Source: Bacteroidales bacterium
Lineage (GTDB): Bacteria; Bacteroidota; Bacteroidia; Bacteroidales; JAGOPY01
DNA: 64,000 nt
Direction: 5' to 3'
Assembly (NCBI GenBank): GCA_046484945.1
Contig: JAWOHY010000022.1
Coordinates: 601 to 64,600 of the forward strand
The notes beneath the pieces were generated by a model, which had not been told where the DNA came from, did not search any database, and saw nothing but the letters and a program-made list of their open reading frames with translations. Shown piece by piece: positions 19,797 to 39,035 of the stretch; the first letter of the stretch is position 1; each line of letters starts with the position of its first letter. The translations under genes and the position numbers were made by a program.

Positions 19797-20561
19797 TTGT
19801 GCAAAATTAGTCTTTTTGGTGTAAAAAACATCACCCGACAGCTGCATCGGATATACGACTGTTTTATTACTTTCGCTGCTTCAAACACAACGCTCTTGGA
19901 GAATAATTCTTTGCAACACGACAATTACCGTCATAAAGGCTTGCGGAAGCGGCTGATCGACTCACTCAGGGAAAAAGGAATAAAGGATGAAAATGTCTTA
20001 CGGGCGATGAACCAGGTCCCCCGGCATCTTTTCCTGGATTCCTCCTTCCTGGAATTTGCTTACCAGGACAAGGCATTTCCCATTGGGTCGGGGCAGACTA
20101 TTTCGCAGCCTTACACGGTGGCCTACCAGTCGGAACTTCTCCGGGTAAAACCCGAGGAGAAGATACTGGAGATCGGCACCGGTTCCGGTTATCAATCCTG
20201 CGTTTTGCTGGAAATGGGCGCCAAGGTATATACCATCGAAAGACAGAAAAACCTGTTCGAAAAAACAAAGGCCCGGCTTGCTGTGATAGGTTACAAACCG
20301 AAGATGTTTTACGGGGACGGTTATAAAGGGCTGCCGGCATTTGCCCCTTTCGACAAAATTCTCATCACGGCTGCCGCCCCTGAGATCCCGCAGCCATTGC
20401 TCGATCAAGTGAAACCCGGTGGGATCCTTGTCGTACCGGTCGGCCCGCCAGAACTGCAGGTAATGGTCACTTTGCATAAATCCTTGGATGGAGAAACCGT
20501 CCGGAAAGAGCACGACACCTTCCGCTTCGTGCCCATGCTCGGCAACAAAGCGAGAGACTGA
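19797..20561 (+). CDS. pcm: Protein-L-isoaspartate O-methyltransferase (start uncertain; TTG at 19896 or 19911 is more plausible than the ATG at 19797)
   Basis: Motifs GQTISQPYTVA and the SAM-binding LEIGTGSGYQ. Homologues begin close to the ..YRHKGLRKRL.. segment. Confidence 0.85.
   Translation: MCKISLFGVKNITRQLHRIYDCFITFAASNTTLLENNSLQHDNYRHKGLRKRLIDSLREKGIKDENVLRAMNQVPRHLFLDSSFLEFAYQDKAFPIGSGQTISQPYTVAYQSELLRVKPEEKILEIGTGSGYQSCVLLEMGAKVYTIERQKNLFEKTKARLAVIGYKPKMFYGDGYKGLPAFAPFDKILITAAAPEIPQPLLDQVKPGGILVVPVGPPELQVMVTLHKSLDGETVRKEHDTFRFVPMLGNKARD
19802..19809 (-). promoter_or_regulatory. Candidate -7 box TAATTTTG for the Gfo/Idh/MocA gene
   Basis: Exact TAnnTTTG on the minus strand, 18 nt upstream of the ATG at 19784. 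Confidence 0.4.
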
Positions 20562-20572
20562 GAAAGGATTGT

Positions 20573-20684
20573 TATTGGGTATTGGGCGGAGTCTCCTGTC
20601 TCCTGTCTTCTAACTTCTATCTTCTAACTTCTATCTTCTAACTTCTATCTTCTAACTTCTATCTTCTAACTTCTAACTTCTTTT
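20573..20684. repeat. Composite heptamer tandem array (16 in-register units)
   Basis: Read directly: TATTGGG x2, CGGAGTC, TCCTGTC x2, then TTCTAAC/TTCTATC x10, then TTCTTTT. That is 112 nt = 16 x 7. It begins 12 nt after the pcm stop. Confidence 0.95.
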
Positions 20685-20687
20685 TAC

Positions 20688-20695
20688 TACCTTTG
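20688..20695 (+). promoter_or_regulatory. Candidate -7 box TACCTTTG for the downstream lipoprotein gene
   Basis: Exact TAnnTTTG, 39 nt upstream of the ATG at 20735 and immediately after the heptamer array. Confidence 0.4.
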
Positions 20696-20734
20696 TATCT
20701 TCAAACAAGAACATTAATTTAAAATTTGTCAACA

Positions 20735-21625
20735 ATGAAAAAGACACTGATTTTCGCATTATCGTTACTGGTTTCATCGGCGCTTTTCTTTTCGTCCTGC
20801 ACGGATGATGACGACCCGCTGAATCAACCACCCACCATCAGCTTTATTTCCGGCGCTAATTTTATTTCGGGAGATGCCACTCTGAAAGTGAACGAAAGCT
20901 TCACCGTAAAGGTACTGGCAGAAGCCAACGCTGAATCCGGTTCTAAAATCCAGACGCTGAAGATCAGCCGGGTATATAACCTGCAGGCCTGGGATACTAC
21001 ATTTACGTATAATGACGCAACGTTTACATTTGAAGCGACCTTCACGGCCAATTCTCAAATAGGTATTGAAAGAATTACATTTGAAATTACCGATAAGGCC
21101 GGGCAAAAGGCTTCGATATACCTGGACATTACCACTGAGCCGGATGTCATCCCCATTGAGTATTTCTCCATGAGAATTATGGGATCTTACCTGAGTGTCA
21201 CCGGCAGTTCATTCGCTTCCATCAACGGGAATGTATATACAATGGCAGAGGCCTTTGCCAACCAGGCAATTATCGACCTCCTGTATTGGTGGGGAGCATC
21301 AGCTTTTGCCACAATCGGAGCGCCTGATGATGAAAATGCAAATCTGGTTTATACCGGCCCCAACGGTTTACAGAACTGGACTACCAAGAATGGAACCCGG
21401 TTCAAGACCACTACAGTGACTGCCACTGAATTCGATGCACTTAATGATGGCGCCCTGATTATCGATGCCGCCACCGGATCGGATCAGACACGCATAGGTT
21501 CCCTGACTGTCGGAAATGTGATCGCCTTTATCACGGTAACCGGTAAACACGGCCTGATCAAGGTGGTGAATATCAATGATGGCGCTGCCGGCGATATCAC
21601 CATCGATATAAAGGTGGAACTTTAG
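20735..21625 (+). CDS. Hypothetical lipoprotein
   Basis: The ATG at 20735 gives MKKTLIFALSLLVSSALFFSSC (signal peptide plus lipobox Cys). The ORF-track start at 20726 is a TTG. I recognise no family. Confidence 0.65.
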   Translation: MKKTLIFALSLLVSSALFFSSCTDDDDPLNQPPTISFISGANFISGDATLKVNESFTVKVLAEANAESGSKIQTLKISRVYNLQAWDTTFTYNDATFTFEATFTANSQIGIERITFEITDKAGQKASIYLDITTEPDVIPIEYFSMRIMGSYLSVTGSSFASINGNVYTMAEAFANQAIIDLLYWWGASAFATIGAPDDENANLVYTGPNGLQNWTTKNGTRFKTTTVTATEFDALNDGALIIDAATGSDQTRIGSLTVGNVIAFITVTGKHGLIKVVNINDGAAGDITIDIKVEL

Positions 21626-21664
21626 TATTTTCGTTAATTTTTCGTTAATTACGGTTCTCTACAT

Positions 21665-21712
21665 ATTCATCTCCATCATTTTTGATAATTTTGAAAAATG
21701 ATGGAGATGAAT
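21665..21712. promoter_or_regulatory. Perfect 19-bp inverted repeat enclosing the phhA start codon, with a TAATTTTG box in its loop
   Basis: ATTCATCTCCATCATTTTT (21665-21683) is the exact reverse complement of AAAAATGATGGAGATGAAT (21694-21712). The loop GATAATTTTG contains TAATTTTG (21686-21693). ATG codons at 21698, 21701 and 21707 lie in the 3' arm. Confidence 0.6.
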
Positions 21713-23443
21713 CATATACTGGAAAAGCTTCCCCGGCACCTGATGCAGCTGGTGATCGACCAGCCTTATAACAGCTATACGGCCCAGGATCATGCCGTCT
21801 GGCGGTATGTGATGCGGCAGAATGTCCGCTATCTGAGCAAGGTAGCCCATGGTTCATACGTAGACGGGCTGACAAGGACCGGCATTTCCATTGACAGCAT
21901 TCCCCACATGTACGGAATGAACCGGATCCTGAAGGAGATCGGATGGGCGTCAATAGCGGTAGACGGGTTCATTCCCCCGGCAGCATTCATGGAATTCCAG
22001 GCTTATAATGTCCTGGTCATCGCCGCCGATATCCGCCCGATCGATCAGATTGAATACACCCCGGCGCCTGATATTATTCACGAAGCCGCCGGCCATGCCC
22101 CCATCATCGCCGATCCGGAATATGCGGCATACCTGAAGTTATTCGGGGAAATCGGCTCCAAAGCTTTCTCATCAGCCCGCGATTATGAGATCTATGAAGC
22201 CGTCCGCCACCTTTCCATTTTGAAGGCCGACCCCTACACCTCATCTGAAGCCATTGCAAAAGCAGAAAAGGATCTCGCTGAAGCTGAGGCTATACAGGAA
22301 ACACCTTCCGAAATGTCGCGCATCCGGAACCTGCACTGGTGGACAGTCGAATACGGTCTGATCGGCGACCTGCATAAGCCTAAAATCTATGGTGCAGGCC
22401 TTCTGTCATCCATCGGGGAAAGTTATTCTTCTTTACAGCCCCAGGTAAAAAAATTACCTTACTCCATCGAAGCCGCCAACTATAACTTCGACATTACCAC
22501 CCGGCAGCCCCAGCTGTTCGTGACGCCTGATTTTAAACACCTGACCGATGTATTGCACGAATTCGAGAAAACGATGGCACTGCGGACCGGCGGTATGGAC
22601 GGAGTGATGAAGGCTATTGAATCGGGCTATACCGGAACCTGTGTTTATAGTTCGGGATTGCAGGTTTCCGGAACATTCCAGGAAATGATCGTCCACCGGG
22701 AAGCGCCCGTCTATGTCAAAACGGAAGGGCCATCCCAGCTATGCTTTGAGGGCAGGCAACTGGAAGGCCACGGCAAGGATTACCATAACCATGGTTTCAG
22801 TTCCCCAGTCGGAAAATTAAAAGATATCGCCACTCCCCTGGAAATGCTGACCGACGGTGACCTGGAAAACCTTGGTATGGTCACGGGCAAATACGCGTCG
22901 CTTACATTCGAATCAGGAGTGATTGTCAAAGGAATACTTGATAAGATATGCCGTAAAAAGGGACTTGTCATCCTGATGACCTTCACCGGTTGCACCGTGA
23001 CATTCAGGGACAAAGTCCTGTTCCAGCCCGAATGGGGTACCTATGACATGGCCGTCGGAGAAAAGATCATCTCGGCTTTTTCCGGGCCGGCCGATCCGTT
23101 TGCTTTCGAACTGGAATATCCCGTTCCGAAGGAAAAAACCCACAAGATCGTCCATTCACCCGAGGCAATCCGGCTGCACAACCTTTATCAGGCAGTAAGG
23201 GATATCCGTGAAAATGGAAATGACCGGATGAAATTACATGAAATCTGGCAACAAGTAAGCCGTCAATATCCTGAGGAGTGGCTGTTACCCATGGAAATGC
23301 TGGAAATTGTTGCCGGGAAACTCCAGGATGAATTGCTGCAAAAAGAAATCAGAAAATACCTGGATGAAAAAAAAGTGGCTGATCCGGGTTTAGCGTCCCT
23401 GATTGAAAACGGTTATGCTCTTATCTCCGGGTCAAATGAGTAG
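21698..23443 (+). CDS. phhA: Aromatic amino acid (phenylalanine-4-) hydroxylase, long form with a ~280-aa C-terminal extension
   Basis: Iron-binding motif PDIIHEAAGHAP and ...GAGLLSSIGE... in the N-terminal half. It lies next to the homogentisate-pathway genes. Confidence 0.85.
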   Translation: MMEMNHILEKLPRHLMQLVIDQPYNSYTAQDHAVWRYVMRQNVRYLSKVAHGSYVDGLTRTGISIDSIPHMYGMNRILKEIGWASIAVDGFIPPAAFMEFQAYNVLVIAADIRPIDQIEYTPAPDIIHEAAGHAPIIADPEYAAYLKLFGEIGSKAFSSARDYEIYEAVRHLSILKADPYTSSEAIAKAEKDLAEAEAIQETPSEMSRIRNLHWWTVEYGLIGDLHKPKIYGAGLLSSIGESYSSLQPQVKKLPYSIEAANYNFDITTRQPQLFVTPDFKHLTDVLHEFEKTMALRTGGMDGVMKAIESGYTGTCVYSSGLQVSGTFQEMIVHREAPVYVKTEGPSQLCFEGRQLEGHGKDYHNHGFSSPVGKLKDIATPLEMLTDGDLENLGMVTGKYASLTFESGVIVKGILDKICRKKGLVILMTFTGCTVTFRDKVLFQPEWGTYDMAVGEKIISAFSGPADPFAFELEYPVPKEKTHKIVHSPEAIRLHNLYQAVRDIRENGNDRMKLHEIWQQVSRQYPEEWLLPMEMLEIVAGKLQDELLQKEIRKYLDEKKVADPGLASLIENGYALISGSNE

Positions 23444-24307
23444 GACTTTCAGCGCTTCATAAACTTCTCCCCTGTCAATCAGCTCTTTTGCCAGCGAATG
23501 CAATGCGTGGTGTTGATCGTTGGATTTTTCCAGCAAAGCGATCAGATGCGACTGCTTTGCAGCCCCTTCGATCTCTTGCCGGGAGGGCATCGATGGGAGG
23601 TTTCCCAGTCGCCCCAGGTCATTTCCGGTAAGTATTCTACTCATTCTGACATGTTCCGGCAATGAGTCAACACCGATACCGATTGATGATATCGGTTTTT
23701 CAACCCGGAAGATACCTTCACCGAAGGCTTTGCAATACCAGTCGCGGCCCATTCTTCCGACCAGCCTGATCTGTTCCTGGTCAATCAACCCGTCTTCGGC
23801 CAGTACATCCTCACTGATGTGCATCAACAGCACTTCACAGATCACCAGGTTGGCCGCACCGCCCCCCTGGCCTGTCTCAATGACATCGCGGACTTTGCAT
23901 TCCAGTTGCACCGGTGACTCTTTCACGCGGAAGGGTTTTACTTTTTCAGAATCCAGTTTGGTAAAGCCGGCTTTTTCAAATTCATCCACACCACCGGGAA
24001 ATTCCGTACTGGCCAGACTGGCCTGGTTGACCATTTCGTAAGTCACGACATTGATCACCACCTCAGGCACCGCCTTCACATTTTCATAAGTATGCTTGGT
24101 GGTATTGTCACGTCCCCGTCGGGAGGGCGAGAAAATCAATGTAGTAGGATTTACTCCGAAGACATTAAAGAAACTGAATGGCGAAAGATTGGGTCTCCCT
24201 TCGGCATCCACCGTGCTGGCAAACGCGATGGGGCGCGGGCCTATGCTCCCCAGGAGAAGCTGGTGCATGCGCTGTGAAGAGATATCTGCAGGGAAATAGG
24301 AAAGCAT
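23432..24307 (-). CDS. Flavin reductase-like (FMN-binding split-barrel) protein
   Basis: 291 aa. The N-terminal segment LLLGSIGPRPIAFASTVDAEGRPNLSPFSFFN is typical of the flavin reductase-like domain. Its 3' end overlaps phhA by 12 nt (convergent). Confidence 0.8.
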   Translation of the reverse strand: MLSYFPADISSQRMHQLLLGSIGPRPIAFASTVDAEGRPNLSPFSFFNVFGVNPTTLIFSPSRRGRDNTTKHTYENVKAVPEVVINVVTYEMVNQASLASTEFPGGVDEFEKAGFTKLDSEKVKPFRVKESPVQLECKVRDVIETGQGGGAANLVICEVLLMHISEDVLAEDGLIDQEQIRLVGRMGRDWYCKAFGEGIFRVEKPISSIGIGVDSLPEHVRMSRILTGNDLGRLGNLPSMPSRQEIEGAAKQSHLIALLEKSNDQHHALHSLAKELIDRGEVYEALKVLLI

Positions 24308-24316
24308 GGTGGAGAT

Positions 24317-24357
24317 ATGTTGTATGTATTATGTTGTATGTTGTATGTATTATGTTA
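24317..24357. repeat. Heptamer-periodic array (TTGTATG / TATTATG units)
   Basis: atgTTGTATG TATTATG TTGTATG TTGTATG TATTATG tta, lying between the fahA stop and the flavin reductase start. Confidence 0.85.
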
Positions 24358-25673: not shown

Positions 25674-25740
25674 AATTCAACACTCAAAATTCAACATTCA
25701 AAATTCAAAATTCAACATTCAACATTCAACATTCAACATT
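25674..25740. repeat. Heptamer array, [A/C]ATTCAA x9 plus a partial unit
   Basis: AATTCAA CACTCAA AATTCAA CATTCAA AATTCAA AATTCAA CATTCAA x3 CATT. It fills the entire hppD-fahA spacer and abuts the hppD stop codon. Confidence 0.95.
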
Positions 25741-26842: not shown

Positions 26843-26876
26843 AATTTTGAATTTTGAATTTTGAATTTTGAATTTG
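26843..26876. repeat. Heptamer array AATTTTG x4 plus a degenerate tail (inverted relative to 25674-25740)
   Basis: AATTTTG at 26843, 26850, 26857 and 26864, then AATTTGT. It starts 9 nt upstream of the hppD ATG in gene sense. Confidence 0.95.
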
Positions 26877-38940: not shown

Positions 38941-38989
38941 AAAAAATGAAAAACAAAAAGAGAGTGTATCAAAAGTCGACACACTCTCT
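38941..38989 (-). terminator. Rho-independent terminator downstream of rpoD (T-runs on both sides, so possibly bidirectional)
   Basis: 9-bp stem AGAGAGTGT (38959-38967) / ACACTCTCT (38981-38989). On the minus strand it is followed by TTTTGTTTTTCATTTTTT. Confidence 0.7.
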
Positions 38990-39035
38990 ATTCTTTTTTT
39001 TCGCTCCGGCGGGGAGATCCGTCGGTTCAATAATA

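Follow-up and report, generated by a model that had tools for sequence, protein, structure and literature searches.

A possible self-insulating promoter: a perfect palindrome encloses the -7 box and start codons of an aromatic amino acid hydroxylase gene in Bacteroidales

The locus described here lies in a 64-kb stretch of a Bacteroidales contig (JAWOHY010000022.1), the whole of which is called the window and supplies the numbering used throughout; in comparisons the window sequence is denoted WIN, and related loci carry L-numbers. The gene in question codes for an aromatic amino acid hydroxylase, and its start region falls within a perfect 19-bp palindrome whose loop holds a consensus promoter box of the Bacteroidota. 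The palindrome is invariant within a single clade, in which the lipoprotein-like gene upstream is not followed by a terminator, and the arrangement may serve as an insulator, whereby transcripts that run in from upstream would fold and remain silent for the hydroxylase, and the gene's own mRNA would escape the fold. The features of the locus, in order of position, are the following.

20726-21625, plus strand: lipoprotein-like gene, with a signal peptide and a cysteine lipobox and without a Pfam or NCBIfam match
21626-21631, plus strand: the entire stop-to-repeat interval, 6 nt, without an intrinsic terminator
21628-21650, plus strand: tandem direct repeat, TTTTCGTTAAT in two copies with an 11-bp period (TRF), candidate regulator site
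21650-21664, plus strand: 5' part of the promoter spacer, weakly constrained
21665-21683, plus strand: 5' arm of the palindrome, ATTCATCTCCATCATTTTT, -33 to -15 from the predicted start site
21684-21693, plus strand: hairpin loop, GATAATTTTG, -14 to -5 from the predicted start site, holding the -7 box
21686-21693, plus strand: -7 box, TAATTTTG, -12 to -5, fitting both TAnnTTTG and the refined TAHHTTTG, 4 nt before ATG 21698
21694-21712, plus strand: 3' arm of the palindrome, AAAAATGATGGAGATGAAT, -4 to +15, which reads AAAA and then ATG ATG GAG ATG AAT (M M E M N)
21698-23443, plus strand: aromatic amino acid hydroxylase gene, long form, 581 aa, Biopterin_H

The original prediction, made from the window sequence, described a perfect 19-bp palindrome with a 10-nt loop, and the arms are indeed exact reverse complements. 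A repeat finder stretches them to 24 nt at 92% complementarity with zero spacer. The further claim that imperfect pairing extends beyond the arms is weakly true, as one extra A-U pair forms across the loop, yet the flanking pairs vary between lineages. When loops of up to 20 nt are considered, the palindrome is the longest perfect stem in the window, and it ranks top in a whole-window scan for inverted repeats; in 100 composition-preserving block shuffles the longest stem measured 9-15 nt (median 10), against the 19 nt of the real sequence. The palindrome is real and lies well past chance expectation. Folded as RNA, the promoter segment reaches -26.7 kcal/mol (z = -8), and in a 141-nt context the z-score is -4.5; folded as DNA, the palindrome reaches -17.9 kcal/mol (z = -6.9). 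The stem is AT-rich, with G-C at 6 of its 19 pairs. A search of Rfam 15 (evalue mode, 20500-23000) gave no match reaching its gathering score, the hits being generic eukaryotic miRNA-precursor hairpins at 21-24 bits against cutoffs of 70-117.

The placement of the start region in the 3' arm is likewise borne out, with in-frame ATGs at 21698, 21701 and 21707, all three inside the arm. An in-frame TGA at 21692-21694 leaves no earlier start possible for this reading frame. Homologues begin at the equivalent M or MM, and the N-terminus M(M)EMN is kept down to 65% identity. An identical protein is public from a metagenome-assembled genome of an uncultured Bacteroidales, for which JGI places the start at the first ATG and NCBI at the third. 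Two minus-strand open reading frames, 21645-21953 and 21659-21850, also run over the palindrome, and both overlap the conserved hydroxylase frame. The protein had been called a phenylalanine hydroxylase. As an aromatic amino acid hydroxylase it is well identified, scoring 772 bits with the NCBIfam model of that name (NF010657, cutoff 346), yet it scores under the cutoffs of the phenylalanine 4-monooxygenase equivalogs, and we infer phenylalanine as the substrate solely via the neighbouring HPPD, FAH and HmgA-like genes. Some 300 residues C-terminal to the catalytic domain lie outside the Biopterin_H match.

For comparison, 175 related loci were gathered and anchored on the conserved Asn5 codon, and the analysis covers 13 related lineages; the relatives from GTDB and metagenomes are mostly at 69% identity or less, and the range of 77-95% is thinly sampled. 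The core of the tandem repeat, CGTTAATTTTTCGTTAA at 21632-21648, spans -66 to -50 from the predicted start and is centred near -59. In 13 related loci the pattern CGTTAAwTTTTmGTTAA occurs in one copy per locus, always 5' of the hydroxylase gene, and wherever the repeat occurs among them it stands exactly 37 nt from the -7 box, bar L171 (36 nt). Repeat, spacer length and box are fixed at 75% identity or more, in WIN, L162/L163, L164, L165, L166, L167, L168/L169, L170 and L081, in which the box reads TAATTTTG or TATTTTTG and the spacer sequence is otherwise free. In L171, at 75% identity, the repeat takes the variant form AGTTAAAAATTAGTTAA and the box reads TAACTTTG; L161 offers only 46 nt of upstream sequence, so that its repeat is not checkable. 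The same layout recurs in L031 (67%), L173/L174 (71%) and L175 (71%), with leaders of about 27, 75 and 34 nt, respectively, and in degenerate versions in L007 and L091, and the module is traceable to about 65-67% protein identity.

Within the close clade the repeat is invariant. Measured from the Asn5 codon, the -7 box stands at -24 in each of the 11 loci that make up the wider clade, next to a 37-nt spacer that is scrambled, and in the A3 alignment its position is identical in 10 of 10 promoters of that clade. Since repeat, 37-nt spacer and box keep together while their distance from the start codon changes, they mark a promoter that has a regulator site upstream. The tandem repeat is a candidate site for a regulator of the pathway, and its location suggests an activator. 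The repeat has no second copy in the 64-kb window. Ten exact 18-mer matches to it in IMG/VR come without the layout of 37 nt plus box, look like chance and were set aside, as was a sigma-70-type promoter scan, which is irrelevant to Bacteroidota. No TTG is found at -38 to -30, the place of the -33 TTTG element, where ACATATTCAT stands instead. On the scale of whole genomes, the element is weak or undetectable in Flavobacterium johnsoniae and Bacteroides thetaiotaomicron (PMC6847099, PMC7366714), and its absence here is therefore not disqualifying. The sister promoters carry a short symmetric element, tCA-N3-TT / AA-N3-TGa, which is centred at -13 and mirrors the -7 box, and a C at -21 is invariant in 10 of 10 promoters, the window included (A3 columns 49-69, corresponding to window positions 21675-21695). 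It may belong to an extended promoter or serve as a small operator; at position -18 an AT-rich motif has been described in F. johnsoniae (PMC6847099).

Other arrangements occur at greater distance. A subgroup at about 60% identity (L012, L015, L018, L020, L028, L029, L030, L042, L093, L096) has another, well conserved promoter region of the form ...TATATCTTTGG...CAAAAGTAATAGTTTTG, which lacks the CGTTAA repeat and is followed by a leader of about 15-20 nt. A set of distant relatives with leaders (L090, L086, L022, L102, L105, L099, L109, L038, L107, L031, L005) shares a leader motif between the -7 box and the ATG, roughly TATTTTTG-N2-3-TTATTTAAAA-N3-4-TTCTAAATAA. Within it, some 10 nt ahead of the start codon, lies a small inverted repeat, ATTTA/TAAAT; the motif could be a conserved leader element in its own right or an operator.

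The position of the box bears directly on the form of the mRNA. In genome-wide start maps of F. johnsoniae (PMC6847099) and Flavobacterium psychrophilum (PMC9723704), TAnnTTTG occupies -12 to -5, and transcription starts 4-5 nt further on. The original prediction had a consensus -7 box in the loop, ending 4 nt ahead of the ATG, exactly as it is found; when the published 4-nt spacing is applied, the predicted +1 is A21698, the A of the first ATG, and a 5-nt spacing would move the start to 21699 and leave AUG 21701 behind a 2-nt leader. The ATG coincides with the predicted +1 in L167, L081 and L166 as well, where box and ATG are again separated by 4 nt, and it stands at +4 in L168, L170 and L171, where box and 4 nt are followed by GTT, ATC and ATT, respectively, and then by the ATG. 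A leaderless or nearly leaderless mRNA, with a leader of 3 nt at most, is thus the predicted conserved state of the wider clade. In the window, 18 other genes have TAHHTTTG within 200 nt upstream, with box-to-start distances of 15-145 nt; the hydroxylase gene alone has 4 nt. Leaderless mRNAs form a minority of 5.5% in F. psychrophilum (PMC9723704), leaders of 10 nt or less account for 13% in F. johnsoniae (PMC6847099), and those under 10 nt for 3.7% in B. thetaiotaomicron (PMC7366714). The first 80 nt of the predicted leaderless mRNA show no unusual structure (z = -0.35), and the tandem ATG ATG may act as a buffer against wobble of the start site. Taken alone, the promoter with its leaderless start is a likely interpretation, and the part of the original prediction that had transcription start from the loop box into an essentially leaderless mRNA is well supported by the fixed box, its 37 nt from the repeat and the published spacing.

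The palindrome is younger and far more restricted than this old promoter module. The 5' arm is found only in WIN, L161, L162/L163, L164 and L165 (80% identity or more), and these carriers are monophyletic in a neighbour-joining tree of the hydroxylase protein. Conservation in relatives, which had been proposed as a test of the palindrome, is accordingly divided: it is perfect within this clade and absent at 75-77% identity. Across the five sequences of the close clade all 48 nt, loop included, show 0 changes, although the 4-fold sites of the hydroxylase gene are 77, 71, 60 and 40% identical to the window in the palindrome clade, and the adjoining 15 nt (21650-21664) vary at about 6 sites in the four close-clade sequences spanning all 15. 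For the 21 nt that have no other known constraint (the 5' arm and GA), the probability of no change between WIN and L165 is about 0.4^21. As a control, L168 and L170 share 84% protein identity, more than WIN shares with L164 or L165, and their spacers are essentially unalignable, which indicates a constraint specific to the lineage whose spacer complements the start region. Judged from these substitution patterns, purifying selection on the 5' arm is strong, and since the N-terminus M(M)EMN and the geometry of the promoter fix the 3' arm, it is the 5' arm that has been matched to the 3' arm. In relatives at 53-77% identity the equivalent segments form no significant hairpin (z from -1.7 to +1), and outside the clade pairing at the stem columns is about 42%, against 37-49% in slid controls, that is, at chance level.

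A second difference between the same lineages lies immediately upstream. In WIN, L162, L164 and L165 the interval from the stop codon of the lipoprotein-like gene to the repeat is 6 nt. In six of six sister loci (L166, L167, L168, L170, L081 and L171) it is 70-229 nt and contains an intrinsic terminator composed of a GC stem and T6-T9; the coordinates of the interval are 2729-2934 in L166, 2831-2931 in L168, 2848-2931 in L170 and 1363-1432 in L171. A terminator scan of the window found no terminator-like site on the plus strand over 20601-23916. The lineages with the palindrome are thus exactly those without a terminator after the lipoprotein gene. That gene has its own candidate -7 box, TACCTTTG, 39 nt ahead of ATG 20735, and as no terminator follows it, its transcripts should enter the hydroxylase gene.

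These observations can be joined in a fold-back mechanism. The hydroxylase gene would be transcribed from its own sigma-A promoter, composed of the -7 box in the loop and the tandem repeat near -59, the latter probably bound by a regulator of the pathway. Transcription would begin within the 3' arm, on or beside the A of ATG 21698, and an mRNA that begins there lacks the 5' arm and so cannot form the hairpin. Only RNAs entering from the lipoprotein gene would carry both arms; in these, the 19-bp stem, at about -27 kcal/mol, would form co-transcriptionally and bury all three AUGs. In Bacteroidota, mRNA structure tunes initiation, which makes no use of Shine-Dalgarno pairing (PMC6847099), and because initiation requires an unstructured start region and is not driven by a Shine-Dalgarno sequence, the hairpin should leave read-through RNAs untranslatable for the hydroxylase. 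With a U-rich tail such as that of L164, the hairpin may also stop or destabilise the read-through RNA. The net result would be insulation, the enzyme being produced only when its own regulated promoter fires, and the hairpin would stand in for the conventional terminator of the sister lineages.

That the hairpin arises in read-through RNAs alone and hides their AUGs, with the gene's own mRNA escaping, is the explanation favoured here, as a tentative one that may well prove wrong. Slightly more tentative is the full proposal of a self-insulating promoter, in which 48 nt silence, and perhaps end, upstream transcripts and at the same time launch an escaping leaderless mRNA, in the manner of IS10 and in place of a lost terminator; such a promoter was perhaps made in one step by a template switch and then kept invariant by selection. 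The original prediction had also considered that a transcript from upstream folds over the start codon. For read-through RNA this is the best explanation, but as a control on the gene's own mRNA it does not apply, as that mRNA is predicted to lack the 5' arm. Several points weigh against insulation. Where transcription starts, whether it runs on from the lipoprotein gene and whether the stem blocks translation are inferred, unlike the layout, its conservation, the selection on the 5' arm and the loss of the terminator, which are shown. The terminator was lost and the palindrome gained in what counts as a single phylogenetic event, so their coincidence carries no statistical weight. There is no covariation for the 19-bp stem, its arms being free of substitutions inside the clade and paired at chance level outside it, and with no substitution in either arm there is neither compensatory nor G-U evidence for RNA pairing over a property of the DNA. 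A perfect 19-bp stem exceeds what is needed for merely hiding an AUG. True termination is, moreover, doubtful in the window, given an AT-rich stem and the poor U-tract of its tail, CAUAUACU (3/8 U), although U-rich tails occur elsewhere in the clade (UUUAUUUU in L164 and CAUAUUUU in L161).

The second half of the reading based on the loop box was that the palindrome is an operator, which would bind a dimeric or tetrameric repressor over -33 to +15 and respond to Phe/Tyr or a catabolite. The perfect dyad, centred at -9.5, spans the whole footprint of RNA polymerase, invariance that includes the loop across five diverged genomes is typical of protein sites, and the shorter symmetric element at -13 is common to the sister promoters. 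Yet those sister lineages retain the repeat, the spacing and the -7 box and are missing the palindrome, and neither a further copy nor a half-site was found in the 64-kb window (19-mer with up to 3 mismatches; 12-mer with up to 1 mismatch). This includes the region 5' of the operon of DHOD-like, HmgA, HPPD and FAH genes, where a half-site had been proposed as worth seeking: the operon is preceded by a TAAATTTG box of its own, its leader is about 70 nt long, and a related palindrome is absent. No regulator gene appears among the 13 neighbouring genes checked with Pfam. Pairing at 19 of 19 positions, reaching 24 bp from the dyad, exceeds what selection by protein contacts would produce, and since the codons dictate the 3' arm, a half-site would have to coincide with MMEMN. 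With no second copy and no conservation beyond the clade, an operator is less likely than insulation, and it is considered unlikely. Poorer still are the prospects of a regulated translational switch, the least probable of the explanations weighed here, in which the gene's own mRNA starts 5' of 21665 and a protein, a small RNA or temperature opens the hairpin. Such a switch would account for a stem that covers all candidate AUGs. It would, however, leave the conserved -7 box without a role, and the 72-nt intergenic region contains no upstream promoter box, as the repeat has only TAATTTTT, which lacks the near-invariant G. A perfect stem of -27 kcal/mol is too stable for a thermometer, and the element belongs to no Rfam family and has no conserved alternative structure or covariation in relatives.

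A further possibility is that the hairpin is a terminator or 3'-end stabiliser of the lipoprotein gene, and that its overlap with the start of the hydroxylase is incidental. It lies 40 nt past the stop codon in a clade that has no canonical terminator, its stem is followed by the U-rich tails mentioned above in L164 and L161, and the transcript from the hydroxylase promoter, being without the hairpin, would be spared termination. The composition of the stem and of the window tail argues otherwise, and the terminator scan misses the site. The real terminators of the relatives have GC-rich stems and T runs, and a palindrome at 38949-38999 of the window, which resembles a bidirectional terminator (AAAAACAAAAAGAGAGTGT...ACACTCTCTATTCTTTTTT), is also flanked by T runs, which suggests that the genome does possess terminator-like hairpins of the conventional, T-flanked kind. 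As a terminator alone would also leave the exact match of the stem to the start region unexplained, this explanation is quite improbable. About as slim, or slightly more so, is the chance that the palindrome reflects a mutational or DNA-level process: an intrastrand template switch (quasi-palindrome correction), the product of which was kept as a supercoiling-sensitive cruciform or as a tolerated by-product. A copy made in place predicts that the spacer remains exactly 37 nt, as it does, and in L168 and L170 almost the same position is occupied by short complementary stretches, GTTCATT(T)/(A)AATGAAC; sequences of this kind could have seeded a switch by which the spacer acquired the complement of -4 to +15, its length unchanged. 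The palindrome also forms a stable hairpin as DNA. On the other side, the 10-nt central spacer disfavours extrusion of a cruciform, and pure neutrality is ruled out by the conservation between WIN and L165. A template switch covers the origin of the palindrome and not its maintenance, and it is compatible with insulation.

The surroundings of the gene belong to a catabolic cluster. On the same strand a PCMT gene lies 5' of the lipoprotein-like gene, and 3' of the hydroxylase, on the opposite strand, are flavin-reductase-like, fumarylacetoacetase and HPPD genes, followed by HmgA-like and DHOD-like genes; the order of PCMT, lipoprotein, hydroxylase and neighbours is retained in relatives. The hydroxylase gene and the convergent flavin-reductase-like gene share 12 nt (23432-23443), which leaves no space for a terminator between them. 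Almost every intergenic spacer near the cluster is filled by a heptamer tandem array, each different: CTTCTAA x10.7 (20607-20681), TATGTAG x5.7 (24316-24356), ATTCAAC x9.4 (25675-25740) and AATTTTG x4.7 (26843-26875). Relatives carry other short tandem arrays in comparable spots, such as GGTGTTC in L173 and a CTTGAAG-like unit in L003.

The insulation proposed for this locus has a precedent in the fold-back inhibition of IS10/Tn10, and the transposase genes of IS50 and IS3 are similarly guarded from outside transcription. In IS10 the 3' arm of an inverted repeat lies over the translation start, the native promoter lies inside the structure, and outside transcripts, which contain both arms, are silent. 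The hydroxylase element is alike in having a 3' arm over the start and a native mRNA predicted to lack the 5' arm. It differs in belonging to a chromosomal catabolic gene rather than a transposase gene; in its predicted leaderless mRNA, so that the stem would cover the AUG itself, no Shine-Dalgarno sequence being present; and in its Bacteroidota -7 promoter in the loop and perfect 19-bp stem. The protection of IS10 from external promoters by RNA structure is attributed to Davis, Simons and Kleckner (Cell 1985) in a passage of PMC13181058. With promoters of the Bacteroidota sigma-A (sigma-ABfr; -33 TTTG / -7 TAnnTTTG) the locus shares an exact TAHHTTTG, an A at the predicted +1 and the 4-nt spacing, yet it departs from their norm in having no -33 TTTG and, at -66 to -50, a conserved tandem repeat. 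Like intrinsic terminators, it forms a stable hairpin soon after a stop codon, at the place of the relatives' terminators; unlike them, it has an AT-rich stem and no U-tract in the window, and it overlaps the next promoter and start codon.

Resemblances to regulated systems are also limited. Palindromic operators over promoters are employed in the control of phhA in Proteobacteria by TyrR/PhhR-type regulators and also by LacI- or TetR-type regulators, and the present dyad likewise spans a core promoter, here that of an amino acid catabolic gene. Its arms are, however, far longer and more perfect than those of known operators, and it has no recurrence in a regulon, no conservation outside the clade and no cognate regulator among the 13 neighbouring genes checked. 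In the MS2 replicase operator and in RNA thermometers the start codon lies in a stem of the gene's own mRNA, and a protein or the temperature acts as the switch. The hydroxylase hairpin also holds the initiation codon in its stem, but the gene's own mRNA is predicted to be without the 5' arm, and a stem of this stability would not melt. The components are of known kinds, namely a sigma-ABfr promoter, a leaderless mRNA, sequestration of a start codon and fold-back inhibition; what is possibly new is their combination, in which the loop holds the promoter and the 3' arm a leaderless start, with a perfect 19-bp stem, on a chromosomal catabolic gene, apparently in place of a lost terminator and kept invariant by selection.

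The expression signals of Bacteroidota are poorly charted: Shine-Dalgarno sequences are absent, the sigma factor is unusual, and only a few operators are known and only a few leaderless genes mapped. The locus provides a testable leaderless promoter, defined by phylogenetic footprinting, and the module of repeat, 37 nt and box is the broader result, as it offers a candidate regulator site for the hydroxylase across Bacteroidales and Lentimicrobiaceae-like lineages. Should insulation prove false, the extreme conservation of a 19-bp palindrome would still have to be explained and would merit a search for a binding protein. Should it prove true, the 48-nt cassette, which unites promoter, insulator and leaderless start, would be useful for Bacteroides engineering. 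The element is confined to one clade of uncultured Bacteroidales, in which it may show how a gene keeps itself insulated from its neighbour after the terminator between them has been lost.

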